Numbered from the stretch's first letter, positions 18,486-43,615 are shown. The stretch is DNA of 64,000 bases from Spirochaetia bacterium (GCA_965140585.1 OZ223270.1:645360-709359); one strand, 5' to 3'. A program made the numbers and translations. The notes: a model not told the origin generated them from the sequence alone.

Positions 18486-19337
18486 TTACAACTTATTAAT
18501 GCTTACACCTATATCATACCAGGCCCATGGTTCCGGAAGAAGAAAAGCTGCACCTGAAGATAATTTTTTAATGTTAACTGCAACTTCTTTGAAATATTCT
18601 TCCGTCTTCTCTTTCCCCCATCTTCTATATATAACATCCATATGAAATGGTATGATAAGTTGCGCATGATATTTTACAAATAATTCTGCCAGTTCTTCAG
18701 GAGTAACCTGGCCATCACCAAAAAGATCCGCTCCTCCTTTTCGTACTCCAGCCTGTCGGATGACAACATTTGGAGCATTCTGAAAACACCAGTCAAATAT
18801 GCCATTGGAATAAGTCTGACCTGAAACGGTTAAGATCTTAAAGCTATTTTTTGTTGTAATCATATAATCCGTTGATTCAATATTTCCCCAGTCATCACAT
18901 TCTTTATGTCCTGGAATTCCGAGTTCTTTCATTGCTATATCATTATCATCTGAATATAAGCGGGAACCTGTTGGATTATGTTTTGCCTGTAGTATATTTA
19001 ATTTGAAATCATCTGTAACAATCTCTTGACCGGGATATACCGGAAAAATATTGTCATAGGAAATTTTATGAAATTTTAATATCGGAACAGTCGAATTACT
19101 GCCGGCAAAAACCTTGGAATTAAATTTTCTGACTAAGTCACCAAGATTGATATCATGATCAAAATGTGCATGTGTAAGCAGAATATAATCAGCACCTGTT
19201 ATTTCATCAATCGAGTGCCCTTCCATATGAGGCCCTGTAAAGAATGGATCAATTATTATTACTTTTCCATTTTCGAGAACGATTTCATGCGCACATCCTG
19301 CATTAAATGTTCTTAGCTTAATACTTCTTGAAAACAC
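18486..19337 (-). CDS. MBL-fold metallo-hydrolase (UlaG-like)
   Basis: Motifs IIIDPF, THAHFDHD and IPFHMD. GTG start after AGGAGG. Confidence 0.85.
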   Translation of the reverse strand: MFSRSIKLRTFNAGCAHEIVLENGKVIIIDPFFTGPHMEGHSIDEITGADYILLTHAHFDHDINLGDLVRKFNSKVFAGSNSTVPILKFHKISYDNIFPVYPGQEIVTDDFKLNILQAKHNPTGSRLYSDDNDIAMKELGIPGHKECDDWGNIESTDYMITTKNSFKILTVSGQTYSNGIFDWCFQNAPNVVIRQAGVRKGGADLFGDGQVTPEELAELFVKYHAQLIIPFHMDVIYRRWGKEKTEEYFKEVAVNIKKLSSGAAFLLPEPWAWYDIGVSINKL

Positions 19338-19360
19338 CTGTTTCTCCTCCTAAATTGAAG

Positions 19361-19419
19361 TTGAATAAGTGTATTTCAAGAAATATCGTGCGTCAAATTC
19401 AATTTTTTCAAGAAATATC
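19361..19419. promoter_or_regulatory. Candidate LysR operator region
   Basis: 14-bp direct repeat TTTCAAGAAATATC at 19374-19387 and 19406-19419 (32-bp period), plus TTGAA-N9-TTCAA palindrome at 19361-19379, upstream of the MBL gene. Confidence 0.45.
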
Positions 19420-19448
19420 AACTTTTAGTCATCATTATCTGAAAAAAA

Positions 19449-20363
19449 TTATTTTGAATATTTATCTATGAAAATATCCATTAAAATTTTTACATGATCG
19501 ATTGAATGGTTCCGATTCCAAACCAGACATAATTCCCGTCTTTCCGGCTTTTCTCCAAAAGACAATGGAATAATTTTATCAATAAATTTTTCCGAAACTA
19601 TTGGTTTATCCAGAGTAATCGTTATACCGAGATTATTTGCTACACATAAAAGTGACAAATCGACTGTTGGAACCTGAATATCTGTCTTTGGTTTAATATC
19701 ATAACTTTGAAATACGTAATCAGAAAACTTCTTAATTTTTTGCTGAGGATACAGCATTATGAAATTTTCTTGCTCAAACAGCTTAATATCTACCCAGGGA
19801 TATCTGAATTCTTTCTTAGTAACTGCTTTTTTGATCAATGGATGATTGGCGGGAACTGCTAAAACGAATTCCTCAAATGAAAGTTTTTGATATAGAAATT
19901 TATCCACACGGTTTTCAACCGTCATGATTGCAAAATCCAAGCGGCTGTCTTCAATCATTTTAAGTAGTTTAACTGTCGTGTTTCCAAAAAAAATAATATC
20001 TATTTCCGGATACTTTGATTTAAATTCAGGCATTATTTCTGAAATGATATTTTCAGACTGAATCAAAGGAAACCCAAAATGAATTCTTCCTGAGCGATGT
20101 TCAGCAATATCAATCATCTCATTATGCATTTTCTTCTGTAGGATTGAAATTTTTCTTGCACATTCAATATACCGTGTTCCAGCATATGTCAAATCAAATT
20201 TCTTTCCCACTCTGTCAAATAATGTAACGCCTAATTCCTGCTCTTTATTTTTTACAAACTTGCTTAATGCCGAAGGAGTGATACATAATTTTTCTGCAGC
20301 TCTGATAATACTTTTGTATTTTGCAACTTCAATTATATAATCGGTATTTCTATCCATAATCAA
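19449..20363 (-). CDS. LysR-family transcriptional regulator
   Basis: N-terminal HTH SIIRAAEKLCITPSALSKFVKNKEQELGVTLFDR...LTYAG, 304 aa. Confidence 0.95.
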   Translation of the reverse strand: MIMDRNTDYIIEVAKYKSIIRAAEKLCITPSALSKFVKNKEQELGVTLFDRVGKKFDLTYAGTRYIECARKISILQKKMHNEMIDIAEHRSGRIHFGFPLIQSENIISEIMPEFKSKYPEIDIIFFGNTTVKLLKMIEDSRLDFAIMTVENRVDKFLYQKLSFEEFVLAVPANHPLIKKAVTKKEFRYPWVDIKLFEQENFIMLYPQQKIKKFSDYVFQSYDIKPKTDIQVPTVDLSLLCVANNLGITITLDKPIVSEKFIDKIIPLSFGEKPERRELCLVWNRNHSIDHVKILMDIFIDKYSK

Positions 20364-20445
20364 TCCTTGTTTTACGAATCCATAAAATAAGTTTTTTTAA
20401 AACATATAATATCATAGTGCCTTCAAATTTTATATTTGATTTTTC

Positions 20446-20918
20446 ATCAATCCCCTGATGTGGTCGTTGATGATTATAATAATCAACTTACGATTTGAAG
20501 ATTCTCCGAATCTGTTTCTTTGAGAAAAGCAGAAAATGCTCCAGCGCTTCTCTTCCAATAGTTTCATTGACTTGCTCTACAAATGCATTCATATTTTGTG
20601 AAGCCAGAGAGATGTCAACATGCGGCTGAATAAGTCACTGCTTCCTGAATACTATTTACTGTTGTGTAATGAATATCAATGTGATTTTCTTCAGCTCATT
20701 ATCAATCTTTTTATAATCTCAGAGATAGTTTTCCTTCTTCAAGAGCAACATTGTTAAAATAATGCTTTTCCTTTTTCTGAAAAATTTATTGAAAATTGAT
20801 ATGAGCAGAAAACATAAGAAGCTGAACATGATTTGATTATAACCAGGAGTTGTAATGTGGTAAATTTACCTAATAAAAACAGTCGAATGTCCCGGATGTA
20901 AAAAAAATAAACCACAGG
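20446..20918 (-). mobile_element. Degraded IS remnant (rve/integrase-core transposase, IS3/IS481-like), left end plus internally deleted transposase
   Basis: The minus strand gives an N-terminus MFSFLCFLLISIFNKFFRKRKSIILTMLLLKKEN and a core fragment QNMNAFVEQVNETIGREALEHFLLFSKKQIRRIFKS*VDYYNHQRPHQGID. Terminal sequence CCTGTGGTTTATTTTTTTTACATCC. Confidence 0.75.
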
Positions 20919-21123
20919 TTCTTTTCCAAAATGAGTCTGGAAATTCAAATTGTAGTGTAATCCTTACAGAACACTTCGGTATAAGCTACATAAACTTCCC
21001 CAATCCTGACATTCGATTTCTAACCCCATCCACTAAACTTTTAGAAGAGAAATGAGGGGTATTATGCCTGTGCGGATAATCTATGAAAATAAAGCATGAT
21101 TTCTTATCGGAATGTTGGTTGCC

Positions 21124-21371
21124 ACATTGGTCTGTCATTCCGTCCCGGAATCGGTTACGGAGGGATGCTCCACATCAGCGAGTATGACCCGGGCTTAGGT
21201 TCTGCCTTTGGATTGTTCTATGACAGCCTGGTTAGCCTGTCGGTCTTTACTACCTATGCCCTGAATCCTGAACTGGAAATATATGTTAACCCCGAATTCC
21301 TCATGGTATTCGGCGCAGACGCCATGAATATGGTTATACCTCTGGGCATCGGCCTCCAGTTCAATCTGTAG
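21124..21371 (+). pseudogene. 5'-truncated copy of the small outer-membrane beta-barrel gene
   Basis: Nearly identical to the C-terminal ~80 aa of 25707..26267, but lacks the signal peptide and N-terminal half. Adjacent to the IS remnant. Confidence 0.85.
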
Positions 21372-21493
21372 AAAGGAGATTACTGTGAAACAATTCAATT
21401 CAATATCAAAGCAAGCGGTTCTATTTTTTGTTGTCGTGCTGGTGCTGAGCCTGGTAACAGCATCCTGCTCAGATTTTTTCACTCTGATGACGG
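21124..21493 (+). repeat. 370-bp direct repeat, copy 1 (copy 2 at 26020-26389)
   Basis: Ungapped manual alignment at offset 4896 with about 11 mismatches (~97%). It covers the 3' part of the beta-barrel gene, the RBS, and the lipoprotein signal peptide through SCSDFFTLMT. Confidence 0.97.
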
Positions 21494-23781
21494 TTGAAGA
21501 GGGAGTAGTATTAGAAGATGTCTACGCTTTCGAGCTATCCTCAGAGCATTACAACTATGGCGCTGCTGATAAGAATGGCAATCTGGTCTTATACAACATT
21601 GACGGGGATACTCCTCTCAGTGCTTCCATTATAACTCAGGACAACAGCACTCTAACAGTAGCATTCAATAATGACGGTTATCCTTCACGTATAATAACCG
21701 ATGAATACATACTGCTTATGGACGGATGGGGTGACGGAACAGCAGACTTTGCAGTAATTAATGTGGCCGATGAATCCGTGGCGTACTACCCAAATACTCC
21801 AGTGGACTATACTCCCGAATCCAGCACTGATTCTTCAGCACGTCAGATCAATACCAGAGGATTGTTTGGTGATATAGGAAAGGGACTGAGAAATATCGGT
21901 AATGCCCTCAGGTCTGTTGCAACCGCAATTGCAGACTTCCCTATTCCCAACAATCCAATCACCACTATAATTACCGGTACCGTTAACACCTTGGCGAAGG
22001 TTGCCGATGTAACAGCCGACGGGCTGGTGGCAGTAGATGAGGTGCCATTTGAGAATTTCTTTGAAGACCCCATCGGCATAGCTTCTGAAGTGGTGACTAT
22101 TGCAGCGGACACTGTTGCCGAAGTAGCTACCCTTGTAGCCGATACTGCGGTGGACCTCGTAAATGTATTTTTTGAAGTCGATACAGCTCCACCTGATCCG
22201 GTTACTGATCTTGCTGTTTCCAAACCTGAGGATGGAACCATTCGATTGAGCTGGACCCCGCCGGCTTCGGATTACGATCATGCAACAGTCTGGTATGGTG
22301 AAGGGACTGAAGCCAGTGCAGCTACCACTCAATTCACCGGCACAATAGATGCAGGCGGAGCTACCATTTCCGGACTGACAAACTACACAGATTATGTATT
22401 TGTGGTAAAAGCCCTGGACTATTTTGAGAATGAGAGCGAACCGGCGAGTATAAGCGACCATCCCTTCGACAGAACCCCTCCCGCGGAAGTCAGCGATGTG
22501 GTTGTAGCTCTATACGACAATACCTTCCGAATATTCTGGTCAGACCCGACAGATGCTGATTTCGACAGTATCAAGATCTATTATGGCCCCGGGAACACGG
22601 CGGACGATGCAACTACAGAATATACCGGAATCATAGATACCAGTTATCAGGATCCCGATATGGCCAGAAGTACTTTTACCGGTCTTTCAGAGGGCCAATA
22701 CGCCATTGTCATCAAAACAGTTGATGATAAAGCCGTTCTGAACGGTAGTGCCAATGTCTCCGACGGATATCTTGTGACCCCATGGATGGTTTCCACCACC
22801 CCGACTTTAGCCACTGCATCTCCAGGATATGGAGAGCGGCAAAACTACGAAACCCTGGTATTTGACAACAAGCTTTGGATGATCGGTGGCTCCGGTGGAT
22901 CAGCCCAGAATGAATTGCAAACTAGTGTGTACAGCTCGGTAAACGGGACGGATTGGGTTCTGGTAACGGATCAGCCTGAGTGGTATACCCAGCACCAACC
23001 TCTCGATCTGAACCAGGAAGACACTACCAAGTACGGAAGACAGAAATTTGCCTCAACCGTCTATGACGGAAAAATGTGGGTTATTGGTGGCACCTATGGA
23101 GATAACAGATTATTCGACGATGTGTGGTATTCAACCGACGGGGATACCTGGACTGCAGCCACCCACGAGGCCCCCTGGGGGCCCCAGGCCTATATAGATG
23201 CGCTGGAGTTCGATGGAAAACTATGGCTGTTTATCAATAATGACTCCATCTGGAGTACCAGCGATGGAAATACCTGGACAGAAGAAGCCTCCAGTGTGCC
23301 TTGGCTTACACGGGAACATGAAATTGTAGAATTCCAAGGGAAGCTTTGGCTCCTGGGCGGAGGTTATGATAACGGTCCAAGTCAACCGCTGTACTACAAG
23401 ACCAATGATGTCTGGGTCTCTGAAGATGCTGTTACCTGGACTCAGGTAACCACAGATGGTTATTTTACCGAAGGTTCGGCTAACTATCACTATTGGGGGG
23501 CGGATATCTGGGAAGATCGGGCTGAATTTGCAGCTGCCGTTGCCTATGTCAGAATCTGGGTTATCGCCGGGCACCCCGCCAGCAACAGCCTGAAAGACAT
23601 ATGGAGCTCTGATGACGGCATTCACTGGGTCAATCTGGATGCTTCAAATGAAGCCACTTGGTACGACCGGGATGCACATACAGCCGAGTTTTTCGATGGA
23701 AAGCTCTTCTTCTTCGACGGCTATTCATTGAATTCGCTGATAGCAAACGACTCGACACCGGGAGATATCTGGTACTACTGA
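21385..23781 (+). CDS. Surface lipoprotein with Fn3-like domains and a C-terminal kelch-like beta-propeller
   Basis: Lipobox VTASC. Fn3-type segments DTAPPDPVTDL..IRLSWTPP and DRTPPAEVSD..IFWSDP. Repeats of (F/Y)DGK(L/M)W(M/V/L)IGG...DVWxSxDGxxW. Confidence 0.8.
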   Translation: MKQFNSISKQAVLFFVVVLVLSLVTASCSDFFTLMTVEEGVVLEDVYAFELSSEHYNYGAADKNGNLVLYNIDGDTPLSASIITQDNSTLTVAFNNDGYPSRIITDEYILLMDGWGDGTADFAVINVADESVAYYPNTPVDYTPESSTDSSARQINTRGLFGDIGKGLRNIGNALRSVATAIADFPIPNNPITTIITGTVNTLAKVADVTADGLVAVDEVPFENFFEDPIGIASEVVTIAADTVAEVATLVADTAVDLVNVFFEVDTAPPDPVTDLAVSKPEDGTIRLSWTPPASDYDHATVWYGEGTEASAATTQFTGTIDAGGATISGLTNYTDYVFVVKALDYFENESEPASISDHPFDRTPPAEVSDVVVALYDNTFRIFWSDPTDADFDSIKIYYGPGNTADDATTEYTGIIDTSYQDPDMARSTFTGLSEGQYAIVIKTVDDKAVLNGSANVSDGYLVTPWMVSTTPTLATASPGYGERQNYETLVFDNKLWMIGGSGGSAQNELQTSVYSSVNGTDWVLVTDQPEWYTQHQPLDLNQEDTTKYGRQKFASTVYDGKMWVIGGTYGDNRLFDDVWYSTDGDTWTAATHEAPWGPQAYIDALEFDGKLWLFINNDSIWSTSDGNTWTEEASSVPWLTREHEIVEFQGKLWLLGGGYDNGPSQPLYYKTNDVWVSEDAVTWTQVTTDGYFTEGSANYHYWGADIWEDRAEFAAAVAYVRIWVIAGHPASNSLKDIWSSDDGIHWVNLDASNEATWYDRDAHTAEFFDGKLFFFDGYSLNSLIANDSTPGDIWYY

Positions 23782-23865
23782 TGTTGTGCCGCCGGGTTGG
23801 CATAAACAATTAGAATTGCCAATGGCCCAAAACGAAAGGGTAAATAAATTATAGGAGAATAAATA

Positions 23866-24786
23866 ATGAAAGAAAAGCGAAACATTTTTATCGGAATATT
23901 GGTTGCAGCATTGGTATTGTTTGCTATCGGATGTGAAATACCGGGAACAGACGGAGACGGCAGTGACGGAGAAATTGCGGTTACCTTTGAAAGCGCAGTA
24001 CAAACCGGTGGAACCGATGGCACAGCCGATTCAACAAGTCTGACGCTGACCTTCAGCGCCGATCCCGACACATTGGCAGCAAGCGATATCACGCTAACGG
24101 GAGCGACCAAGGGTACGCTTAGCGGTACAGGAACAACCAGGACACTAGCTATTTCAGCTATTACAGTGGGAAATGGGGAGACATTATCGATAGAGATAGC
24201 AGACCCAAGCGGGTACACCATAAGCGGCTCACCGCAAACTGCGGTGGTGTATAGAGATGTAACTTATGAGCTTGGAGACACTGGCCCAAGCGGAGTGGGG
24301 ATTGTTTTTTATATAACAGATGGCGGACTGCATGGAATGGAAATTGCGCCTGAAGATCAGGGAAGCTCTGTAGCATGGAGCAATATAGACAATGCTTTTG
24401 TTAATGGTGTTGATTCATTACCTGCTGACATAGGTACAGGAGCTTCAAACACCGATGCAATAATTGCCCAGACTGGTCATACGGCCAGTGCAGCGCAGTT
24501 GTGTCATGATTATGCCGGCGGCGGTTTAACTGACTGGTATCTTCCATCGGAAAATGAACTACTCGAGCTTTATAAAATTTCTATGGGCGATCCTGCTGAA
24601 AATGAACATATATCGAATATTCCTGAACTAGATTATCGAAACCTTGGCATCTCTGTATGGTACTGGACATCTACCGAAAGTTCTTCTGATTCAGCCGAGC
24701 GCCTTCAGTTTGAATGGTCCGGTTCAGGTTCCAATTTAAAATGGAAAACCGTATCCATGAAAGTTCGTGCAGTACGAAGTTTTTAA
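23866..24786 (+). CDS. Lipoprotein, Ig-like domain plus DUF1566/Lcl (C-type-lectin-like) domain
   Basis: Lipobox AIGC. Motifs YELGDTGPSG.GIVFY, DWYLPSENEL, YWTSTE and C-terminal VRAVRSF. Confidence 0.8.
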   Translation: MKEKRNIFIGILVAALVLFAIGCEIPGTDGDGSDGEIAVTFESAVQTGGTDGTADSTSLTLTFSADPDTLAASDITLTGATKGTLSGTGTTRTLAISAITVGNGETLSIEIADPSGYTISGSPQTAVVYRDVTYELGDTGPSGVGIVFYITDGGLHGMEIAPEDQGSSVAWSNIDNAFVNGVDSLPADIGTGASNTDAIIAQTGHTASAAQLCHDYAGGGLTDWYLPSENELLELYKISMGDPAENEHISNIPELDYRNLGISVWYWTSTESSSDSAERLQFEWSGSGSNLKWKTVSMKVRAVRSF

Positions 24787-24808
24787 TGAAGGAGAATTAA
24801 CTATGAAA
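24763..24808 (+). repeat. 46-bp inter-gene junction repeat, copy 1 (copy 2 at 25667-25712)
   Basis: GTTCGTGCAGTACGAAG(T/C)TTTTAATGAAGGAGAATTAA(C/T)TATGAAA with 2 mismatches. It spans the VRAVRSF stop, the RBS and the next start. Confidence 0.9.
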
Positions 24809-25690
24809 TCAAAACGAAACATTTTTATCGGAATGTTGGTTGCAGCATTGGTATTGTTTGCAATTGGATGTGAAATGCCGGGAACAGGTGGTGACGGAGG
24901 GGTCTCTCCAACAGCCGTCACCTTCGAGAGCGCGGTCCAAACCGGCGGTACGTCAGAAACTGCAGATTCTACAGGCTTAATACTGACATTCAGTGTTGAC
25001 CCGACGACATTATCAGCAGATGACATTACGTTAACGGGAGCGACAAAGGGTGAGTTGACCGGTACCGGAACAACCAGAACACTGGCTATTTCAGCTATTA
25101 CAGTGGGAAATGGGAAAACAGTATCTGTGGCAATCGCAGATCCAAGCGGATACACCATAAGCAGCTCACCGCAAACTGCGGTGGTGTATAGAGAAATAAC
25201 CATCGGCATTGTTCATCAAGGTGGGGTTGTTGCTTATATTCTACAGGATGGCGACTCGGGATATGTAGCCGGTGAAATTCACGGTCTAATTGCATCAATG
25301 GCTGACTTGAGTGATGCCATTAAATGGAACAACGGAAGTAACATAGATACAACAGCAACAGGAACAGCAATCGGTACAGGGCAGGCTAACACTACTGCGA
25401 TTGTAACTGCACAGGGGGCCGGAAGTTATGCGGCACAATTATGTGATGATTATATAAATACCGATACCGGGACAGGGGTTTACGACGATTGGTACTTGCC
25501 TGCGCGGTTTGAATTAGGTGTACTCCGAGAAAACCAAGCAGCTATCGGCGGCTTCACCTCCGATGGGGGGTATTGGTCCTCTTCAGAAATCAATAGTGTA
25601 ACTGCATTTTCGGCAGATTTTGACTCAATGTCGTATTCTGGTACTTCGAAGGAAACCGATAAAATGGTTCGTGCAGTACGAAGCTTTTAA
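24803..25690 (+). CDS. Lipoprotein, Ig-like domain plus DUF1566/Lcl domain (paralogue)
   Basis: ATG at 24803 after AAGGAG. Signal peptide and Ig-like domain are highly similar to 23866..24786 up to TAVVYR. The C-terminal domain differs (DDWYLPARFEL, YWSSSE, VRAVRSF). Confidence 0.8.
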   Translation: MKSKRNIFIGMLVAALVLFAIGCEMPGTGGDGGVSPTAVTFESAVQTGGTSETADSTGLILTFSVDPTTLSADDITLTGATKGELTGTGTTRTLAISAITVGNGKTVSVAIADPSGYTISSSPQTAVVYREITIGIVHQGGVVAYILQDGDSGYVAGEIHGLIASMADLSDAIKWNNGSNIDTTATGTAIGTGQANTTAIVTAQGAGSYAAQLCDDYINTDTGTGVYDDWYLPARFELGVLRENQAAIGGFTSDGGYWSSSEINSVTAFSADFDSMSYSGTSKETDKMVRAVRSF

Positions 25691-25706
25691 TGAAGGAGAA
25701 TTAATT

Positions 25707-26267
25707 ATGAAAGAAAAGCGAAGAAGAGTAACACTTCTAGTAGTAATCTTCATTGCTGCTGCATCTGCGCTGGGAGCGCAAAGCCTCTCAGACGTTTACG
25801 TTGGCGCATCGGGCAGCATCCCTCTGGGGGATTACCGCAGCATATACAGCGTTGGGGCAGGAGCCCAGGCGGGAGTTACCGTCGAAGTTCCATTTCTTCC
25901 CGGATTGGGAGCAGGCGCTCAGTTAAGCGGATCCTACCAGTTCCCCGCCGGCTCGCAGATCAGTCTGCTCATCGATACAATTTGGCAGATAACGGCTAAC
26001 TACGAAATCAGTCTGGATGACATTGGTCTGTCATTCCGTCCCGGAATCGGTTACGGAGGGATGCTACACATCAGCGAGTATGACCCGGGCTCAGGTTCTA
26101 CTTTTGGATTGTTCTATGACAGCCTGGTTAGCCTGTCGGTCTTTACTACCTATGCCCTGAATCCTGATCTGGAAATATATGTTAACCCCGAATTCCTCAT
26201 GGTATTCGGAGCAGACGCCATGAATATGGTTATACCTCTGGGTATTGGCCTCCAGTTCAATCTGTAG
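25707..26267 (+). CDS. Small outer-membrane beta-barrel protein (probably 8-stranded)
   Basis: ATG at 25707. Signal peptide ending ASALGA-Q, alternating amphipathic strands, and C-terminal GIGLQFNL. 186 aa. Confidence 0.7.
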   Translation: MKEKRRRVTLLVVIFIAAASALGAQSLSDVYVGASGSIPLGDYRSIYSVGAGAQAGVTVEVPFLPGLGAGAQLSGSYQFPAGSQISLLIDTIWQITANYEISLDDIGLSFRPGIGYGGMLHISEYDPGSGSTFGLFYDSLVSLSVFTTYALNPDLEIYVNPEFLMVFGADAMNMVIPLGIGLQFNL

Positions 26268-26389
26268 AAAGGAGATTACAGTGAAACAATTCAATTTAAT
26301 ATCAAAGCACGCGGTTCTATTTTTTGTTGTCGTGCTGGTGCTGAGCCTGGTAACAGCATCCTGCTCAGATTTTTTCACTCTGATGACGG
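26020..26389 (+). repeat. 370-bp direct repeat, copy 2
   Basis: Matches 21124-21493 (see copy 1). Confidence 0.97.
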
Positions 26390-27171
26390 GGACAGATTCG
26401 GAAGGGCAAGCTACAGATGCTGAGATAGTTGCAGACGATAAGGCTGCCCTTGATATTACATTTTCAGGGACTGATACGCTAACTTCAGTAACAGGCAATC
26501 TAACTTTACCGACATCCGGATCAGCCGGCTCCACTATCACATGGGCAAGTGATACAGAGACGGTAGTTGCAGCAGATGGAACAGTTACAAGACCTGCTTT
26601 TTCTGATGGTGATGCAACTGTGGTAATGACAGCTACGATTACTAATGGAACGGTGAGTGAAACAAAAACTTTTACTCTGACTGTAATTAAAGCAGATCCG
26701 ATTACTTACTCTATCGGTGACATAGGTCCCAGCGGTGTAGGAATAGTCGTTTATATAAGCGATGGCGGGCTGCATGGACTGGAAGTAGCATCGGAAGATC
26801 AGGCAACTAGTGCAGCATGGAGCGATGTCACTGCTACTTTGATTGGAACAACACATACCGCTTCCGGAACCGGGTCTGCTAATACAGATGCCATTATAGG
26901 GCAGGATGGGCATACTGCCAGTGCGGCACAGATATGCAGAGATTACCATGGAGGAGGATTAACTGATTGGTATCTGCCATCTCAAGTTGAACTCATAAAC
27001 CTAATTCCATCAAAGGATACAATTGGTATGGGAAGTGGCAATTATTGGAGTTCTTCCGAGGTCGATGAGGATGAGGCTTACGCAATACAGATGTGGAATC
27101 CATCGCAAACGGTGATTGATCCCTTTAAAAGTGCAACCGCTTTTAGAGTTCGAGCCATGCGGAGTTTCTGA
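26281..27171 (+). CDS. Lipoprotein, bacterial Ig-like domain plus DUF1566/Lcl domain
   Basis: GTG at 26281. Signal peptide nearly identical to that of 21385. Ig-like segment LTLPTSGSAGSTITWAS...DGTVTRP...KTFTLTV, then YSIGDIGPSG, DWYLPS, YWSSSE and VRAMRSF. Confidence 0.8.
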   Translation: MKQFNLISKHAVLFFVVVLVLSLVTASCSDFFTLMTGTDSEGQATDAEIVADDKAALDITFSGTDTLTSVTGNLTLPTSGSAGSTITWASDTETVVAADGTVTRPAFSDGDATVVMTATITNGTVSETKTFTLTVIKADPITYSIGDIGPSGVGIVVYISDGGLHGLEVASEDQATSAAWSDVTATLIGTTHTASGTGSANTDAIIGQDGHTASAAQICRDYHGGGLTDWYLPSQVELINLIPSKDTIGMGSGNYWSSSEVDEDEAYAIQMWNPSQTVIDPFKSATAFRVRAMRSF

Positions 27172-27180
27172 AAATACGGC

Positions 27181-27206
27181 AATTGGGGGCGAAAGCCCCC
27201 AATTTT
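27181..27206 (+). terminator. Rho-independent terminator ending the lipoprotein array
   Basis: AATTGGGGGC-GAAA-GCCCCCAATT followed by TT. Confidence 0.8.
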
Positions 27207-27273
27207 GTCGTTAAAAGGATTCAGCTGCCCTGGGGATTTTACAGATGAATAATAACAGAGTATAGTTGACTAT

Positions 27274-28623
27274 ATGAATATCCATTTCCCCAGTATCGGT
27301 TTTGCCTCTTTTGTGTTTTCGATTCTATCCGCATTGCTTATGATAATTGTTCGAAAAATAAATAAATCAGTGCCTGGAACCGGCCTATGGACTTTAGCCG
27401 CAGTTGTAAATGCAGTAATGTGGACACTTGTTATTGCTATCCGATCGGATAATTGGGAAATGGCAAATTTACTGCAGGGATCTTTAGTGCCTTTTCGTGA
27501 TCTTCTGATTCTTGAAGGAGTTATTCTTTTTCGCGGAATTGGAAATTTCAGTAAACTCCGCTATTATCAGGTGATTGCAGCTGTTATTGTACTTTTCACA
27601 CCGCTTGTCATTTTGGATATGGAGCTGGCAAGTTTTCTTTTCAGAGATTTTATATTATTCATCATTAGAGCGGGCATTGCGTCTATCCTCCTCTTCAGAG
27701 CGCGAAAAAGAGAATTCTGGATTCACGGGCTGACAGCCGTACCTGCATTCGTCCTTGCAATCGGTTCGTTGGTACGTTTTCTGGTTGTTCTTTCAGGAGA
27801 TCCTCTATGGAGCAATCCTGAACATCCGGTGATGATAGTTCTGTTCTTTATTTCTTTTATATGGAATATGGAGTGGATTTTCGGTTTAACCATGGCCGTC
27901 AATCTGCGGGTCAGAAATGAATTGTCTGAGTTAAACAGACTCAAAGACCGTCTTTTTCAGGTGATTTCTCATGACCTTCGGGTGCCGATCAATAATTTCC
28001 GCAATCTTCTCACAGTCATTAACAATAATTCTGCAAAGATACCTGAAGAGGAGAAAAAGAAATACTACCAGGCCCTCGATCTTAATATTGATTCAGCAGA
28101 TATGCTGATGGAAAATCTATTGGCTTTAGGTAATAAATATTCCGAAACCTCCGGCTGTAAAAAGGAAATTGCATCAATGCATGCTCTGATAAATGAAGCT
28201 GTAGGTTTTGTTAAAGCAGAAGCCGATAGGAAAGGGGTGGTTCTTGACCTGAAAGAAAATGAGGATATTACCGTTTTTATCGATCCTCACATGATTTCCG
28301 CGGTCATCAGAAATCTGCTCGCTAACGCCATTAAGTTTACCCATGCCGCAGGTACTGTGTCCGTTGGTTTTTCTATACTGGCGGATACTGTAGAAGTTGA
28401 GGTAGCAGACAACGGAATCGGAATATCAGAAGAGATCCTCGGGACAATTCGGGACGGGGCAGCTGAGTTTTCATCCTACGGTACTGAAGGGGAGTCGGGA
28501 ACGGGAATCGGGTTGATGGTGTGCCGGTATTTTCTCGATAAACACGGATCAAGATTATCAATCTGTTCTGCTCCCGGGGAAGGTACCATTGTCACGTTCC
28601 ATCTGGAGAGATACAAAAAATGA
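27274..28623 (+). CDS. Membrane sensor histidine kinase (~7 TM)
   Basis: H-box ISHDLRVP, N-box RNLLANAIKFT, G boxes DNGIGI and GTGIGL. Confidence 0.93.
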   Translation: MNIHFPSIGFASFVFSILSALLMIIVRKINKSVPGTGLWTLAAVVNAVMWTLVIAIRSDNWEMANLLQGSLVPFRDLLILEGVILFRGIGNFSKLRYYQVIAAVIVLFTPLVILDMELASFLFRDFILFIIRAGIASILLFRARKREFWIHGLTAVPAFVLAIGSLVRFLVVLSGDPLWSNPEHPVMIVLFFISFIWNMEWIFGLTMAVNLRVRNELSELNRLKDRLFQVISHDLRVPINNFRNLLTVINNNSAKIPEEEKKKYYQALDLNIDSADMLMENLLALGNKYSETSGCKKEIASMHALINEAVGFVKAEADRKGVVLDLKENEDITVFIDPHMISAVIRNLLANAIKFTHAAGTVSVGFSILADTVEVEVADNGIGISEEILGTIRDGAAEFSSYGTEGESGTGIGLMVCRYFLDKHGSRLSICSAPGEGTIVTFHLERYKK

Positions 28624-29258
28624 AGAAGATAATAATAGTTGATGATCATGTTCTGGTCCGGGCAGGTATGCGGACCATGCTCGAAGAGACGCGCAAATAT
28701 AAGGTAATTGCCGACTATTCTGACGGCAATACTTTTTTGGCAGATGCTTCCGGGAGCGACGCAGATCTTGTACTCCTGGATATCTCAATGCCGGGCAGGA
28801 ACGGTTTGGAAATCATTCATGAAATCAGAAAAAAGAACCAAAAGTTGCCAATCATAATCGTATCGATGTACAGTGAAAAAGAGTTTGCCGTAAAATCTAT
28901 TAAGGCTGGTGCCAACGGGTATATCTCAAAGCGCAGCAGCAAGGATGAAATATTGACGGCTGTAGACGCTGTTTTTAAAGGCGGCATATACCTGACCGGT
29001 GACGGGCTGCACATGCTGCAGTCGCATTTCTCCGGCAGTGATCCCGACTATGGTGCTGATATGATTGAGTCTCTTTCCCCGAGGGAACAGGAAGTGTTTC
29101 GGCTGCTTTGTGAAGGGAAGGCAATAAAAGAGATTGCATATGATCTTACCCTATCCGACAGAACCGTCAGCACTTATAAAGCACGCATCATGGAAAAAAC
29201 AGAAACGGAAAACCTCGTAGATCTAATCAAATTCGGCATCGAGCATGGGCTGGTGTAG
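28620..29258 (+). CDS. NarL/UvrY-family response regulator
   Basis: VDDH, LLDISMPG, and LuxR HTH LSPREQEV...LSDRTVSTYKARI. Overlaps the kinase stop. Confidence 0.95.
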   Translation: MKKIIIVDDHVLVRAGMRTMLEETRKYKVIADYSDGNTFLADASGSDADLVLLDISMPGRNGLEIIHEIRKKNQKLPIIIVSMYSEKEFAVKSIKAGANGYISKRSSKDEILTAVDAVFKGGIYLTGDGLHMLQSHFSGSDPDYGADMIESLSPREQEVFRLLCEGKAIKEIAYDLTLSDRTVSTYKARIMEKTETENLVDLIKFGIEHGLV

Positions 29259-29587
29259 TTTTATTCTATCGGTTTGGTTTTTAAGCACTGCTTCTGTAAT
29301 AGTAATAGTGATGATGCAAACCGGACGATACCGGCAGTCTTTAATATGGAAGAATTTCTACATTAGTTGAAAAAACTATAGTATGCCTGGATATAGGTTT
29401 CCTTCTTTATTTCAAGAATTAGATTTTTTATGTCATTTGTTACAGATTTTCTGACAGCTTAGTAGAGTTATTTGATTGTGTTTGCCGGTGATTTTTATCA
29501 GAAATTATTAGATTAGTTGTACCATGACGGGAGCAGCATACTGCTAATAAATCAGCAGTATTAGCACGCTGCCGTATGATACATGTT

Positions 29588-29613
29588 GATTCCCTAAATC
29601 ATTGTAGGGAATC
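29588..29613 (-). terminator. Hairpin downstream of MCP
   Basis: GATTCCCTA / TAGGGAATC inverted repeat. Confidence 0.5.
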
Positions 29614-29638
29614 GTTATATAACATCGATTAAACGGAT

Positions 29639-31459
29639 CTAACTTTTCTGTTCGATCTGCAGGATCTTATGATTTTTTGAGAAGTATGATATAGCCTCCT
29701 TCATCTTTTCTGCCTGGGTTTCTAGCTCGTTTGAGGTTGCAGCCATCTCTTCTGCTGCTGCAGCGTTATCCTGAATAACCTGATCGAGCTGAGTGATTGA
29801 TGTGCTTATCTGCTCGACACCGGTATACTGCTCCTTACTCGATGCACTTATCTCCTGTACCATCGCCGCGGTTTTACTGATATTCGGAACCATCTCTTTC
29901 AGCATATTGCCGGCCTTTTCAGCACTCGTGGAGGTTGTAGAGGCAAGGGCGGTTATTTCTCCGGCTGCTTCTTGGCTTCGCTGTGCAAGTTTGCCGACTT
30001 CAGCAGCTACAACCGCAAAGCCTTTTCCGTGCTCTCCTGCACGGGCGGCCTCTATCGCTGCATTAAGAGCAAGCATATTTGTCTGCCGGGCTATCTCATC
30101 GATGACCATTATCTTATCTGTTATGTCCTGCATAGCTGTTACTGCGTCGTCTACGGCAGCCCCGCTTTCCTTGGCAATGCGCTCTGATTCCCTGGCCAGT
30201 TTTTCTGTCTCAGCCGCATTCTCGGTACTGGACTGGATATTTGACCGCATTTCTTCCATGGAAGCGGAGACTTCTTCAGCGGATGAGGCCTGAATAGAAT
30301 TCCCTTCACTGACCTTTTCCGCACCCGAGTTTATCTGCAGACTTGTTGTACTGACGCTGTCGGCGGCTTCTCTTACCTCACTGATAACCTCGGAGAGCTT
30401 TGCTCTCATCTCCTCCATTGACATCATAACAGTACCGATCTCATCCAGCCTTGTAACTCTGAATTCAACATCAAGATCACCGTCTTTCATTTTGTCCGAG
30501 GCAATTATTGCAGCGTCGAGGGGTTTGAAAACATATCTGAGGGCCAATATCACAATTACCGCAGCAATGACTGCGCCGATCACTCCAACAATGATAATAA
30601 TAAAAAGAACCGATAAGGCTTGATCCTGAATCTCGGAAGAATCAAGTGTATTACAGATTATAAAATTAAAATCCTCGCTTCTATAGATTGCGGTAAATTT
30701 ATGAACACCGCCCCAAGTATATTCTATTACATCTCCGTTATCCGCGGCCAGAATCTGTTTACCCCAATCATATGTCGGAAGATTGTTGTCGAAAATCTGG
30801 TTCTCGTCAGGATGTATGAATATAAGTCCTTCTTTTGTTATTAGAAACGGATACCCGTTTTTCCCGATGTGAATATTGCTTACAATTCCCTGCCCCATTC
30901 TACCTGCTTCAAGAGCATACCCGAGTATTCCAATTACAGAGCTGCCGTCGGTTACAGGCACTGTAATCAATTGAACTAGTCTGCCGCTTGTAGGCGAAAG
31001 TGCCGGCGCTGAAATAGTCTCCTCTCCGCGCAAGGCATTATCAATATTATCTTTATAGGAATCATTTCTGAACGTTTGTCCTACGGACTTTCCGCCAACA
31101 CTGTCGACAAGTATTATGGAATCTTTCTCCGCACTGGATATAAACATGTTTTCAATATAACCGTTGGCATTATGAAAGGCGCTGAAAAAGCGGCTTATTT
31201 TGTCATATTCTCCGTTTTTAAAATATTCCATATAGGAATCGGCAAAGGTTTCCGCATATCTACTCGATTCCCTGTAATACTGTTCAAATCGCGATCCAAC
31301 CTCCGTCTGAATATTAACCATTTGATTTAAATAAGATGCTTTAATTGTGCTATCTACTCTGGTAAATGTAAATAATCCCGATAATCCGACTAAGGCAACG
31401 ATTACAGCGCATACTGATACAGTTAAAAACATTTTAGAATTACTTTTGCGTAGTCCCAC
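29639..31459 (-). CDS. Methyl-accepting chemotaxis protein (dCache sensor, HAMP)
   Basis: Two TM segments flanking a Cache-like domain ([18 protein letters not shown]). Signalling tip [33 protein letters not shown]. Confidence 0.95.
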
Positions 31460-31599
31460 TAGTATCCTCCTGAAATATTATGAAATATCTTATTAATATT
31501 CTTATAATTAATATTCTATTTATTTTATTGCCCCGTTCAAGCAAATCAGTAAAAAAAGATTTTTTTTATGGGAATTGAGGAATTCTGCATAATATGGTG

Positions 31600-31730
31600 T
31601 TAAATATTGAACCGAGTAGGGAGCATATGAAGCTGAATATGATTTGATTATCACCTGGAATTTTAAAGTCGTAAAATTACCATATAAGAGCTGTTTAAAG
31701 TGCCGGTTTAGAAAACTAACCCACGAGGTT
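31600..31730 (-). mobile_element. Second IS left-end remnant (same family as 20446-20918)
   Basis: Aligns with ~20790-20918 (e.g. GAAGCTGAA(C/T)ATGATTTGATTAT...TTACC...CCGG). The minus strand reads IFSFICSLL versus MFSFLCFLL. Confidence 0.65.
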
Positions 31731-31869
31731 TAATGAGGTAAGATGTCCCTATTAGTGTTAATAAAGCCATAGCACGAGACTCGTGATTTTATTCTTAGAT
31801 ATATATTAATTTTAGTTTTTTTTATCTTTTATATTAATGTTATGATATATATTATGAAAATAAGGTAAA

Positions 31870-33849
31870 ATGCATAAAAACAAAACCAATACATCTGCTA
31901 ATTTATCTGCCAAACTGGTTGTCTTTCAGAGAATCAATACAGTAAGAGAAGTGTCGATAATTGTCGGTCTAGTACTTTTGATTGCGACAGGAATCAATGA
32001 GGTTGTATTTAGTAACACAATGACGCTAAGAGAACTTGGCATAATGCTTTTGGCAATAATTCCTTTCTTTACAGCAGCCTTCATCAACGCATCACATCCT
32101 TTTAATAGCCGGATAAACTATCCTTTCTTGGGCATTCTTCCCTTTGTTGCTGTAGGTGCCAGCGCATTTTGCGGAAACCGACCCTTTACCGTTATGAATT
32201 CGATTCTTTGGCTCTATGTATGTTCGGGAATTTCATATAAACGTGCTTTTTTTCTTAATATTCTTTTACTTATATTCTATCTTGTTCTCGATTATTTTAT
32301 CTCACACTTTACCGCTGAAATGCGCATCTATAGCAATATCTATCTTAACGGAGGCTCCGTATTCGGATTTATATCTGCCTATAATCAGCAGAATATTCAA
32401 GAGGAGCTTAAACATCAGCACAAACTTGCCGTAACATCAGCACAGGAACTTGAGGACAAGCTTAACTATAAAACCGAACTGTATACCGGGCTTGCACATG
32501 AAGTAAAAACACCGTTAACGATTATCAGACATTACTTTTCTAAATACAGAAAAAATAATAATGATTCAAGAGAACTGCAAATTCTTCAGGATAATCTGGA
32601 TAAACTGGAAAGACAGATTGTTAATTTTCTCAAATATGAAAGAGAACATATCCTCTCAAGTGATTCTGAGAAAAATGAGGGACACGGGTACTGTGGCCTC
32701 AGCTCTCTCATCCAAAAGAATATTCCGCTTCTGCAATTATATTTCGAACGTAAAAATGTTAAGCTGTCTGCTGATATTGAACCTAATATTATCGTCGGCA
32801 TAACCCAGATTGACTGCGAACACATCTTTCTAAACCTGATAGAGAACGCACTTAGATACACCCCCACAGGCGGCACTGTTTCCATCTTGCTCAACAAAGA
32901 GGGAGAACGCGCTTTATTAAAGATATCCGACACCGGAATCGGTATTGAACCTGAATACATCGACAAGATCTTTGAACCCCATATCCAGATAAAAGACATC
33001 AGTTCTTCGAAACAAGGATTTGGAATGGGTCTTTTTATTGTGAAGACTATTATAACGCGTGTAAACGGAAATATTAAGGTAGATTCAATACCGGGAGAGG
33101 GCTCACTGTTTACCGTAGCTCTTCCTGTAGAAGATTCAGTGGATGATGGTGGAACAGTATCAGACCTGATCCTCCCCATCAATTTCACAGGGGTTACGAA
33201 AGCAGAGAAAAAGATTAAATGCTACAACACTGAAGGCGAAGCACAAAAACTGATGATTGTTGAAGACAATGATGATCTTAGAGATTTTCTTGAAGAGTAT
33301 CTTTCAGATGAATATGATGTGCTTTCCTTTAGAAACGGACAGCACGCATTATTCAATATAGATCAAGGCAATATACCCGATATAATTATCTCGGATATAT
33401 ACATGGATGAAATGGACGGACTGACCCTTTTGGACAACTTTAACGAACGCTTTCCAAAATCATCCGTTCCTTTTGTATTCATCTCTGCGGATGATACCGA
33501 AAGAATGCGTCTAACAGGACTCGGAAAGGGGGCCGTTGATTATATTGTAAAACCGTTTAGCCCTGAAGAATTGAGAATGAAGATTGCATTATGGCTGTCT
33601 CTTTTTTCTCCTCAAAAAGATGAAGAACTGGAAAGAATCAATAAGCTTTCAAATAAATACGGACTGACGGCTAAAGAAAATCAGATAGTCCTGATGATAA
33701 CACAGGGACATTCAAGGAAGAAAATATCAGAAAAGCTTTTTATAAGTCTTAACACAGTCAAAACCCATATTACTTCAATCTATCAAAAATGCAATGTAAG
33801 CAGTAGAGATGAATTAATAGAATTCATCCGAAATATTCAAACAAAATAA
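31870..33849 (+). CDS. Single-chain hybrid regulator: TM sensor-HisKA-HATPase-REC-LuxR HTH
   Basis: About 5-6 TM segments. Motifs AHEVKTPL, NLIENALRYT, DTGIGI, GFGMGL, IVEDND..ISDIYMD..KPF, and LTAKENQIV..LFISLNTVKTHITSIYQK. Confidence 0.9.
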   Translation: MHKNKTNTSANLSAKLVVFQRINTVREVSIIVGLVLLIATGINEVVFSNTMTLRELGIMLLAIIPFFTAAFINASHPFNSRINYPFLGILPFVAVGASAFCGNRPFTVMNSILWLYVCSGISYKRAFFLNILLLIFYLVLDYFISHFTAEMRIYSNIYLNGGSVFGFISAYNQQNIQEELKHQHKLAVTSAQELEDKLNYKTELYTGLAHEVKTPLTIIRHYFSKYRKNNNDSRELQILQDNLDKLERQIVNFLKYEREHILSSDSEKNEGHGYCGLSSLIQKNIPLLQLYFERKNVKLSADIEPNIIVGITQIDCEHIFLNLIENALRYTPTGGTVSILLNKEGERALLKISDTGIGIEPEYIDKIFEPHIQIKDISSSKQGFGMGLFIVKTIITRVNGNIKVDSIPGEGSLFTVALPVEDSVDDGGTVSDLILPINFTGVTKAEKKIKCYNTEGEAQKLMIVEDNDDLRDFLEEYLSDEYDVLSFRNGQHALFNIDQGNIPDIIISDIYMDEMDGLTLLDNFNERFPKSSVPFVFISADDTERMRLTGLGKGAVDYIVKPFSPEELRMKIALWLSLFSPQKDEELERINKLSNKYGLTAKENQIVLMITQGHSRKKISEKLFISLNTVKTHITSIYQKCNVSSRDELIEFIRNIQTK

Positions 33850-39092: not shown

Positions 39093-40529
39093 ATGAAAAG
39101 AGTTTTTGTTCCTATTGGGGTCCTCATGATTATAACATGCGGCTTTTTTCTGTCTTGTCAGCAGGATCAGTATATTGGTCAGAAAGGAACACCTATTGGC
39201 TCGGTTGATATAGACGGCGACGGAACTTCCGACGGTACTGCAATCGATGTTAACGGTGACGGCGCGGCGGATGGTGTTGATACCAATGGAGATGGAACAA
39301 TCGATGATTCATGGTCGGATGAGTATAAGATTATCGACAATGCAAATGATACAGATACAACAGCTCCGGGAGATATCATTGACCTGAAGATGACATCTGT
39401 TGGATCTAAGGATTCTTCGCAACAGGCCATATTCAGTTGGAATGATCCTTCCGACAGCGATTTTTCTACTGTATCTGTTACCGTCTTTGACTGGACTACC
39501 GGTGATAATTGGACAGATTCCGTCAAGAAAGATGTAGAAACCTACAAACTCAGCAGCATTAATGACTTTGACCGATGTACTCTTACTTTTAAGACTGGGG
39601 ACACTGCAGGCAATCTTTCATCAGGAAAGAGCTTTGATGTTTACTATCATGCAGATACTGCGGTTACCCCCACATATATTACCAGCGGAACAGATCTGCA
39701 TACAAGCCTGACCAGTAATTTAAACGGTTACTACATCCTTGATGCCGATGTTGATCTTAACGGGGTAAGCTGGGCCCCTGTAGGACCTTTCACGGGAGTG
39801 CTGGACGGTAACGGCCATACAATTTCCAACCTGAACACTCTTGATATCTCTGATACCAATTTACATGACCTGGGGCTTTTCGGTGTGATTGAGTCAAACG
39901 CAATGGTTATGAACCTTAGATTGAAAGACCTCGCAATAGATATCAGCTCAAGTAATATTTACCGCGGCGGTAGTTTAGCCGGAATTAATGAAGGGAATAT
40001 TGCAAATTGCAGCGCAACCGGAAGTATTGCGGCTACATCCAATACTCAGCTTGGAGGATTTCTTGGTAATAATAGCGGTGGTGCTATTGATAGATGTTAT
40101 GCTTCTGTTAAGGTAACGACAGCGTCTATTTATGCCGGAGGGTTTGTTGCGCAAAACAATATATACGGTACAATCAAAAACTCATATGCCACCGGAGACG
40201 TCAGCAGCACTGCCGACTATTTGGGCGGCTTTGCCGGCGAATCCGGCGGAAGTTTTTCATATTGCTATTCATCCGGTCCGGTAAGTACAACACTTTCAAA
40301 TCCATCATATAGGGGCGGATTTTGCGGATCATATACAAACTCTGCAACTTCCTATCGGATTTATTTTAATTCTAACTCAGATTCGACGCTTGTAGATAAA
40401 CACGCTGTCGATATTGATCTCACAAATAAAGATTCTTTTACAGGTTTTTTTGATCTTATTCCCAACGCATGGTCAATCAGCAGCTCAGTTAACGGTGGTA
40501 TGCCTTATATTACCAATCTTCAACCGTAG
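39093..40529 (+). CDS. GLUG-repeat surface lipoprotein with N-terminal DxDGDG loops (paralogue 1)
   Basis: Lipobox FLSC. Three DxD/NGDG loops, an Fn3-like domain, FTGVLDGNGHTISNL, GG(L/F)AG repeats, and C-terminal WSISSSVNGGMPYITNLQP. Confidence 0.8.
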   Translation: MKRVFVPIGVLMIITCGFFLSCQQDQYIGQKGTPIGSVDIDGDGTSDGTAIDVNGDGAADGVDTNGDGTIDDSWSDEYKIIDNANDTDTTAPGDIIDLKMTSVGSKDSSQQAIFSWNDPSDSDFSTVSVTVFDWTTGDNWTDSVKKDVETYKLSSINDFDRCTLTFKTGDTAGNLSSGKSFDVYYHADTAVTPTYITSGTDLHTSLTSNLNGYYILDADVDLNGVSWAPVGPFTGVLDGNGHTISNLNTLDISDTNLHDLGLFGVIESNAMVMNLRLKDLAIDISSSNIYRGGSLAGINEGNIANCSATGSIAATSNTQLGGFLGNNSGGAIDRCYASVKVTTASIYAGGFVAQNNIYGTIKNSYATGDVSSTADYLGGFAGESGGSFSYCYSSGPVSTTLSNPSYRGGFCGSYTNSATSYRIYFNSNSDSTLVDKHAVDIDLTNKDSFTGFFDLIPNAWSISSSVNGGMPYITNLQP

Positions 40530-40569
40530 TTGGTCAAAAGGTATTTAAATTTTTTCAAGGAGTTTTGTA

Positions 40570-41838: not shown

Positions 41839-41862
41839 ATCACGGATATAACAGGAGTTTTT

Positions 41863-43314: not shown

Positions 43315-43322
43315 TAATAGTC

Positions 43323-43363
43323 AGTCCCCTTCCAGAGCAGTATCTCTGCCTGGAGAGGGGGCT
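43323..43363 (+). terminator. Stem-loop after lipoprotein operon
   Basis: AGTCCCCT-TCCAG...CTGGAG-AGGGGGCT imperfect inverted repeat. Confidence 0.55.
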
Positions 43364-43615
43364 ATGTTATGCCCGTAATTGGAAGCGCCGATGGGCTTAG
43401 ACCCGAATGCAGGCGGTAAACTCGAGAAGGTCGAATACAACTCAGTAATGCTTTATAAAATTCCCCTATAAGAAGTAATTACCCCGGTTTTATCAAGTCC
43501 TCAAAGATCATGAATACCTCTATTGGAAAAATGGGACTGAATAAACTGTTCTTGATGCTGCGGGTATGAAGTTCAGTACGGCATAATTGCGTGTTTTATA
43601 TCTGTCAATGAATAA

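Follow-up and report, generated by a model that had tools for sequence, protein, structure and literature searches.

The gene block described here lies in a 64,000-nt stretch of DNA from a Spirochaetia bacterium (GCA_965140585.1, OZ223270.1:645360-709359; G000:C7:645360-709359 in our numbering), referred to below as the window and belonging to a 4.85-Mb genome of 10 contigs with 2.88% contamination. Five genes on the plus strand, designated A, B, C, O and D, are flanked on one side by a divergent LysR gene (19449-20363) and on the other by a histidine kinase/response regulator pair (27274-29258), all positions being counted from the first nucleotide of the window. In our judgement the block probably encodes four lipoproteins with adhesin- or lectin-type passenger domains, drawn from two unrelated lipoprotein classes, together with one small barrel protein, and the mosaic make-up of the lipoproteins probably reflects evolutionary domain shuffling rather than programmed switching. 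The genes are:

21385-23781, plus strand: gene A, 798 aa, GTG start, leader SP2, lipobox ...TASC, tether SDFFTLMT
within A: fn3 region, followed by a kelch beta-propeller at about residues 474-797 (Pfam)
23866-24786, plus strand: gene B, 306 aa, leader SP1, Ig-like N domain, Lcl_C (DUF1566) domain of subfamily I
24803-25690, plus strand: gene C, 295 aa, leader SP1, Ig-like N domain, Lcl_C domain of subfamily II
25707-26267, plus strand: gene O, 186 aa, signal peptide, predicted 8-stranded outer-membrane beta-barrel
26281-27171, plus strand: gene D, 296 aa, GTG start, leader SP2, tether SDFFTLMT, aBig_2 domain, Lcl_C domain of subfamily I
27181-27204, plus strand: terminator-like hairpin directly after D, 10 pairs of which 6 are G-C (a consensus match only)

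The spacers in the order A-B-C-O-D measure 84, 16, 16 and 13 nt, respectively, and the start of D was placed by alignment with the homologous GTG of A. Each of A, B, C and D carries a signal peptide with a lipobox and a cysteine, read from the sequence as ...LVTAS-C in A and D and ...FAIG-C in B and C, and all four products are accordingly predicted to be bacterial lipoproteins. The hairpin is likely to mark the end of the operon. A promoter scan returned 15 sites against 14.2 expected and was uninformative, and a search of 19000-33000 against Rfam gave no match. The only genome of the same genus (G001) contained no DNA match to 19449-28623; two of the flanking genes matched there at 26-30% identity.

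Domain composition of the encoded proteins

Pfam searches identified an fn3 domain (39 bits, cut-off 25) and Kelch_1 (34 bits, cut-off 20.1) in the product of gene A, in which a stretch of about 230 aa between the tether and the fn3 region has no assigned domain; scores with the larger kelch-domain Pfam models fell under their cut-offs. Relatives of the propeller at about 30% identity occurred in 40 metagenome loci, with a single near relative at 75% on a 1013-nt contig (L014), and a word-based homologue search with A recovered A alone. In D, residues 50-137 matched aBig_2 (PF20578; 114.3 bits, cut-off 27). Lcl_C (PF07603, cut-off 34.9 bits) was found above its cut-off in B (39.3 bits) and scored under it in C (32.3 bits, E 1.4e-7) and D (26.6 bits, E 8.1e-6), yet in both of the latter the whole domain was aligned. 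An AlphaFold2 model of B, the one protein among B, C and D for which folds were compared, had a pLDDT of 82.7 and matched best the C-terminal domain of Legionella Lcl (8q4e_A; E 1.1e-4, TM by target 0.72). The N domain of the same model matched Ig-like and S-layer beta-sandwiches, so that the label 'Ig-like' is a fair one.

The AlphaFold2 model of O (pLDDT 92.9) consisted of one N-terminal helix and 8 long strands. Foldseek returned 47 PDB matches at E<=0.001, led by NspA (1p4t), OmpA (1bxw) and Ail (3qra), with OmpX also among the top matches, and the modelled fold is that of an 8-stranded outer-membrane barrel of the OmpA transmembrane domain/OmpX/NspA/Ail type. No family match for O was obtained in Pfam or NCBIfam, the score for OMP_b-brl (PF13505) being 11.7 bits against a cut-off of 28.7; among 19 members of the O family, 6 touched OMP_b-brl (best E 4e-5) and 2 touched DUF2715 (PF10895; best E 0.029). 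The family is small, with 22 representatives at E<=0.001 in 1.84 billion proteins. A word-based search with the barrel profile found two proteins only, and a scan of public genomes with the barrel and with B/C gave pattern matches and no relative.

Genes B and C belong to a large Spirochaetia family

An earlier note on this DNA had drawn attention to constant leaders and junctions combined with swapped passengers, and the pattern itself was confirmed in every part. Its statement that B and C share leader SP1 and an Ig-like domain up to TAVVYR is borne out by a direct repeat of 405 nt with 80% nucleotide identity (23853-24257 and 24790-25194) and by N domains that are 79% identical at the amino acid level, with homology ending directly past the VVYR codons. 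Identity between the two genes is uneven, at about 92% in the leader, about 70% in the first half of the N domain and about 90% in its second half, which makes some gene conversion between B and C plausible. The genes are also framed by similar junctions:

24763-24818, repeated at 25667-25722, plus strand: conserved gene junction, 91% identical over 56 nt

The first copy comprises the last codons VRAVRSF, the stop, a GAAGGAGAA spacer and the first codons MK.KR; a shorter junction match connects 23853-23881 with 25694-25722 (93% over 29 nt).

These shared parts extend well beyond the array. At E<=1e-5, 355 proteins matched B, those with names being annotated as 'DUF1566 domain-containing protein' of Spirochaetes/Spirochaetia metagenome-assembled genomes, and B and C are full-length members of this family, 40-58% identical over 100% of their length to many proteins. 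Among the 120 matches listed plus the three paralogues from the genome itself, one N domain with Lcl_C was the prevailing architecture (75 proteins), followed by two or three N domains with Lcl_C (27), Lcl_C alone (15) and N domains without Lcl_C (6); in P0012, P0048 and P0103 the N domain was paired with PF03781 (FGE-sulfatase). The leader, MKEKKNIFLGLLIAA..GC, recurs in homologues of other organisms, and the N domains of such outsiders are 82-87% identical to B or C, a higher figure than the 79% of B against C. In the leader, B and C are much closer to each other than to outsiders. Judged by these alignments, leader SP1 and the N domain are a family-wide trait. B and C (class 1) are members of a large Spirochaetia family whose proteins have a conserved leader, continue with between one and five Ig-like N domains and end in a variable C-terminal domain, which is either Lcl_C of two deep subfamilies or FGE-sulfatase. 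A survey of 201 genomes of the class found domains like that of D in 63 of them, the open frames concerned ranging from 108 to 1247 aa, and tandem arrays of Lcl_C genes were found in other genomes (for example, on contig C3 of G018 and contig C1 of G054).

A 370-nt direct repeat and a deletion scar

The second shared leader, SP2 of A and D, is part of a much closer match, which has the following components:

21124-21493, plus strand: direct repeat copy 1, covering a barrel 3' end, a spacer with ribosome-binding site, and the leader, Cys and tether of A
26020-26389, plus strand: direct repeat copy 2, covering the 3' part of O, the spacer, and the leader, Cys and tether of D
21124-21371, plus strand: barrel 3' fragment of 82 codons, 95% identical in amino acids to O residues 105-186 (family profile E 6.1e-23)
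21084-21131, plus strand: remnant of an SP1-type leader with an ATG at 21084 and a 1-nt indel relative to the leader of C, joined to mid-barrel sequence

The copies are 370 nt long and 97.0% identical (11 mismatches), with a start-to-start spacing of 4896, and their length and likeness are far beyond chance. Each contains the last 82 codons of a barrel with their stop and extends through 13 nt of spacer with AAAGGAG into A or D, of which it covers the first 37 codons. Identity between A and D breaks off sharply after ...CTGATGACGG, and the right border coincides with the start of the passenger after C-SDFFTLMT; beyond it A continues into fn3 and kelch domains and D into aBig_2 and Lcl_C. The sharing of SP2 by A and D with different passengers was thus correctly described in the earlier note, as was the position of homology breakpoints at domain borders, here and after VVYR in B and C.

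The left border has a different character. The barrel fragment lacks a start and a signal peptide of its own and is a truncated pseudogene. Directly upstream, 21099-21131 is 91% identical to the leader of C and 88% to that of B, and this scrap of SP1 leader runs into barrel sequence at a shared 7-nt microhomology, CATTGGT. On the alignment, such a junction is what a deletion running from an SP1 lipoprotein gene to mid-barrel leaves behind, and the left border of the repeat is a deletion scar and no cassette junction. A leader scrap followed by half a barrel in front of A indicates that there were once two units of SP1 gene, barrel and SP2 gene. At first, two units of barrel plus class 2 lipoprotein (the class of A and D, see below) were present, and the upstream one lost the stretch from SP1 leader to mid-barrel at CATTGGT, a step that the scar documents. 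The remaining homologous stretch, from the 3' half of the barrel to the tether, would then have been homogenised by gene conversion, or would stem from a recent duplication. About 450 nt upstream of the scar there is a decayed transposase fragment with an rve_3 integrase core (20416-20628, minus strand, E 3.5e-9, internal stop), to which related DNA occurs at C7:569528 and C7:573151.

Phylogeny of the Lcl_C and N domains

The DUF1566 domain of B had been noted to be nearer to that of D than to that of C, which agrees with identities of 48% between B and D (177 aa), 31-33% between B and C and 35% between C and D. At the nucleotide level, the Lcl_C regions of B and D matched at 78.6% over 98 nt and at 76% over 76 nt. 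A careful tree was calculated from 27 of 118 Lcl_C rows, which we selected for matching B, C and D best. It divided into two subfamilies with support of 100/100, one containing B and D and the other C together with a paralogue on contig C4. Constraining B and C to form a clade lowered the lnL by 106.9 (p-AU 7.9e-6), and B grouped at 100/99 with two proteins of other organisms, P0010 (75% identical) and P0022 (69%). A quick tree of all 118 rows likewise placed B with P0022 and P0010 (SH-aLRT 100), inside a set of 33 rows that included D (99). For the N domain, a tree in which B and C were constrained to be sisters exceeded the free quick tree by 44 lnL units (p 0.764). The incongruence between per-domain trees for which the earlier note had suggested a test was found in this form, the B+C grouping being rejected for Lcl_C and not rejected for the N domain.

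Derivation of the Lcl_C domain of B from that of D was considered as well and discarded, since sisterhood of B and D was rejected in the 27-row tree (p-AU 0.0095).

No donor of the Lcl_C core of B was found in its own genome. The 5' part of B, its last 24 coding nt and the following spacer are like C, and its Lcl_C core belongs to the other subfamily; on this composition B reads as a genuine chimera relative to C. It would have formed as a copy of the 5' part and the 3' junction of C around an Lcl_C core from another subfamily, a step documented in part.

Evidence for and against an active switching system

Mosaicism of this kind, together with the conflict between trees, could be produced by an active mix-and-match system, as the earlier note proposed: leaders and junctions would serve as recombination sites, passengers would be exchanged within the array with appreciable frequency, and cells would differ in their surface lipoproteins. 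The sharp homology borders at domain edges would suit such a system, as would a 370-nt, 97% identical direct repeat that RecA could use and the patchy identity between B and C, which resembles conversion tracts. The mosaic pattern and the tree conflict stand; an exchange system at work within the array does not, and we consider it very unlikely. No inverted repeats (0 between 19000 and 30000) and no simple-sequence tracts of note suited to phase variation were found in the array. Silent promoterless donor copies, which accompany the expression site in loci of the vls, tprK or pilS type, were absent, every lipoprotein gene having a start codon, a ribosome-binding site and a leader, and the sole partial copy in the array is the 3' barrel fragment with its leader scrap. 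Among 35 open reading frames (ORFs) of the window that were scanned there was no intact recombinase or reverse transcriptase, the rve_3 fragment being decayed, so that the array does not qualify as an invertase, shufflon or diversity-generating retroelement system; in this the earlier note, which had seen no dedicated recombinase, was right. Outside the 370-nt block, shared segments have diverged by 20-50%, the Lcl_C domain of B is nearest to proteins of other organisms and not to D, and recombination between the 370-nt copies would delete A, B, C and the 5' part of O instead of shuffling domains.

The alternative cassette orders that an active system would generate gave a divided result. In contigs from the source sequencing run (X1) there was no variant, no alternative joint and no joint of a 4,896-bp deletion or circle; contigs drop rare variants, and this is weak evidence against exchange. 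A relative at about 90% identity from a microbial-mat metagenome (runs X3/X4) did differ in gene order, with a joint 23940->24938 separated by 42 letters. With caution, this points to a single SP1 gene in place of B and C, in which the upstream region and leader of B are joined to the body of C. A second joint, 21090->24866, apparently retains an intact SP1 leader at the spot of the scar, one side of it being only 31 nt long. On the metagenome contig L014, the end of A (75% aa identity) is followed by an SP1-type gene.

The same contigs bear on a further explanation, in which the repeat and the chimeric genes would have arisen by mis-joining of strains during assembly of the metagenome-assembled genome. 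Its 10 contigs and 2.88% contamination would leave room for this. The source run does contain further organisms, to which three loose-end strings of X1 contigs that are absent from the assembly are attributed for that reason, and Logan contigs break at the repeat borders. Set against these points, X1 contigs cover the block at 100% identity, two pieces (19449-21153 and 21464-24256) span the outer borders of copy 1, and the 11 copy-specific differences between the repeat copies are kept. The independent contig L014 has the same junction between the end of A and an SP1 gene, and most of the array is covered at about 90% by runs X3/X4, which come from a different study. An assembly artefact is on these grounds highly improbable.

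The array is instead an ordinary product of duplication, domain replacement, gene conversion and deletion. Where tandem lipoprotein genes have leaders and junctions in common, family-wide conservation, duplication and a deletion scar can account for this without requiring a switching mechanism. Several points weigh against parts of this account. In the 118-row quick tree, a B+C clade for Lcl_C was 47 lnL lower and was not rejected by the AU test (p 0.164), and the rejection of B+C comes solely from the 27-row alignment whose rows we picked ourselves. In the free N-domain tree, B and C were not sisters, their common node holding 29 of 145 tips with weak support. For the 370-nt block, gene conversion and recent duplication are both compatible with the data at this locus. 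The X3/X4 joints, mapped at 85% likeness, may come from other organisms. The G+C content of the array (0.447-0.498 in 1-kb windows across 21000-26999) exceeds that of its flanks (about 0.32 in the 2 kb upstream and 0.416-0.456 downstream to 30999), so that horizontal acquisition of parts is possible; the rise could derive from foreign origin or from an amino-acid composition rich in Gly, Thr, Ala and Asp. Finally, we infer the surface location of the passengers, and it is from sequence features that the block 21084-27204, its promoter included, is treated as a single operon-like unit.

Barrel and lipoprotein pairs across the class

The family profile of O, run against 401 genomes of the class, matched in 52. 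The 30 best barrel loci, 96.5 kb in total and including the window itself, were inspected. In 25 of them the next downstream gene, at a gap of -23 to +89 nt, encodes a lipoprotein with S-[DN]-[MFL]-[MILF] after the Cys. A motif scan raised the number of loci with such a barrel neighbour to 28, adding one downstream (L105), one divergent (L112) and one upstream (L113) gene, and the two remaining loci (L101 and L111) end at the barrel; the background of the same scan was 15 matches in the whole 4.85-Mb genome of the window. The passengers of 27 partner lipoproteins are diverse, comprising YDG/MBG_2 (6), LRR_5 (5), Flg_new (5), aBig_2 (4), PKD-type (3) and Big_12 (2), with DUF285, fn3, Lcl_C and FG-GAP_2 occurring once each and none being assigned in 2. 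Tandem duplicate pairs of barrel and lipoprotein genes were present in two other genomes (G169, contigs C51 and C10; G045, contig C1).

Within the genome of the window, a crude screen found C-S-[DNEG]-hydrophobic-hydrophobic in 4 of 257 lipoprotein candidates, and three of these (A, D and a lipoprotein at C1:353867) adjoin a barrel gene or fragment, the last one following a 188-aa barrel paralogue and carrying aBig_2 and LRR-like domains. A and D (class 2) are barrel-adjacent lipoproteins in which S-[DN]-hydrophobic-hydrophobic-x-x-L/M after the lipidated Cys is followed by freely varying passengers of surface type. As tether and barrel are kept across the class with unrelated passengers, the constant junction and swapped passengers seen in A and D represent a class-wide design.

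At C6:966533-968097 the remains of a fourth pair are visible, in which a barrel gene extends over two frames and precedes a split lipoprotein gene (IGC-FDMISTL). In some genomes (loci L109, on contig C14 of G004, L105, L110, L112 and L113) the barrel forms the C-terminal part of a 529-572-aa frame, the N-terminal part of which may, by eye, be OmpA-like in G004; the partners in these genomes are PKD-type or FG-GAP lipoproteins.

From this conservation we propose tentatively, with confidence short of even, that O and the first ~8 mature residues of its neighbours (C-S-[DN]-hydrophobic-hydrophobic-x-x-L/M) constitute a dedicated and so far undescribed surface-display module of Spirochaetia, in which any adhesin-type passenger (LRR, aBig_2, YDG, PKD, kelch, Lcl_C and others) would fit behind the junction and A and D would share one barrel. 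The barrel would hold the neighbouring lipoprotein via the tether or help to export it, and the passengers would be displayed at the cell surface as lectin or adhesin modules. A, whose own barrel is truncated, would rely on O, which would explain why the tethers of A and D are identical. No description of a barrel-plus-tether pair was found in the open-access literature searched. Complex prediction with O (residues 25-186) and an alignment of 45-residue tethers gave scores of 0.01 and 0.04 against a mark of 0.32, which speak neither for nor against binding.

The same loci could alternatively represent an ordinary array of paralogues, in which the motif would be a general sorting or Lol-related signal or a family trait and adjacency to the barrel would be synteny without coupling. 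We think this improbable, if less so than the possibilities dismissed above, and several findings that count against a surface-display module speak for it. All barrel loci come from one class and from related genomes, and the figure of 28 out of 30 overstates their independence; gene order deviates in L112 and L113; one motif lipoprotein (C3:85625) has no adjoining barrel. A further point against the module is that 349 of the 401 genomes, among them that of the only same-genus organism, had no match to the barrel profile. Gene neighbourhood is moreover the sole basis on which the constant junction is probably a barrel-coupled tether. Opposed to mere synteny are the passengers, which from one locus to the next are unrelated although barrel and tether are retained, making it hard to invoke descent of the whole gene pair alone, as well as the rarity of the motif among lipoprotein candidates, its concentration beside the barrel family and the tandem duplicate pairs in other genomes.

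To our knowledge, lipoprotein surfacing in spirochaetes other than Borrelia is poorly understood, and we know of no sorting signal for them. The barrel-plus-tether pair, kept across many genera in front of very different adhesin-type domains, is a concrete candidate for such a route. If the module exists as proposed, it would offer a handle for predicting surface-exposed proteins from sequence, and the constant junction with swapped passengers would be a real design principle over evolutionary time.

Other repeated elements in the window

A conserved intergenic element of ~120-200 nt occurs in the window at 20700-20920 and 31624-31730, elsewhere in the genome at C7:604031 and in two relatives (L002 in G007 and L005 in G005). 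Its copies are 72-82% identical, also across the genomes of relatives, without a match in the Rfam search of 19000-33000, and it may represent the end of an insertion sequence, a regulatory element or a small RNA. A second tandem array at 39093-45166 consists of four lipoprotein-like genes and is preceded by LuxR-type hybrid kinases and a MalT-like regulator; three of the four genes have GLUG motifs, and these three are 38-56% identical to one another.

Comparison with known systems

B, C and D end in the same DUF1566 domain as Legionella Lcl (PF07603; structure 8q4e). The C-terminal domain of Lcl has a C-type-lectin-like fold, trimerises and binds sulphated glycosaminoglycans (PMC11162425). 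The array proteins differ from Lcl in having a lipoprotein leader and an Ig-like or aBig_2 domain in place of the collagen-like stalk and N-terminal helix, and they score 16-36 bits against the NCBIfam Lcl equivalog model, the cut-off of which is 500. Among the spirochaete DUF1566 lipoprotein families, which reportedly also feature in papers on Leptospira, B and C are full members with a conserved leader and N domain; particular to this locus is that they share an operon with a barrel gene and the genes of two barrel-linked lipoproteins.

For the pairing of O with a lipoprotein, the nearest parallels are type 11 secretion (Slam) and the RcsF system. In the former, an outer-membrane protein gene adjoins the gene of a surface-lipoprotein cargo, and cargo types vary (PMC12282271). 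The likeness is one of gene arrangement only, and O does not fall within type 11. Slam barrels are of the DUF560 type, larger and equipped with a periplasmic domain, and their cargo signal resides in a C-terminal barrel-like domain; O, in contrast, is a 186-aa, 8-stranded barrel without a Pfam match, and the conserved element of its cargo is the first ~8 mature residues. In Escherichia coli, the N-terminal linker of the lipoprotein RcsF is described as associating with the barrels OmpA, OmpC and OmpF, with part of it reaching the surface (PMC7553776, PMC9907809). RcsF differs in being a stress sensor whose gene is not adjacent to those of the barrels and which has no sequence motif in common with the array. 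O fits the definition of neither of these two systems.

With regard to diversification, the array resembles vls of Borrelia and tprK of Treponema pallidum in that spirochaete surface proteins have been diversified by recombination between related blocks. In vls and tprK, one expression site is supplied by many silent, promoterless donors, and variation is confined within one scaffold. In the array described here, by contrast, every copy is a complete gene, and what has been exchanged is entire domains, unrelated to one another and long diverged.

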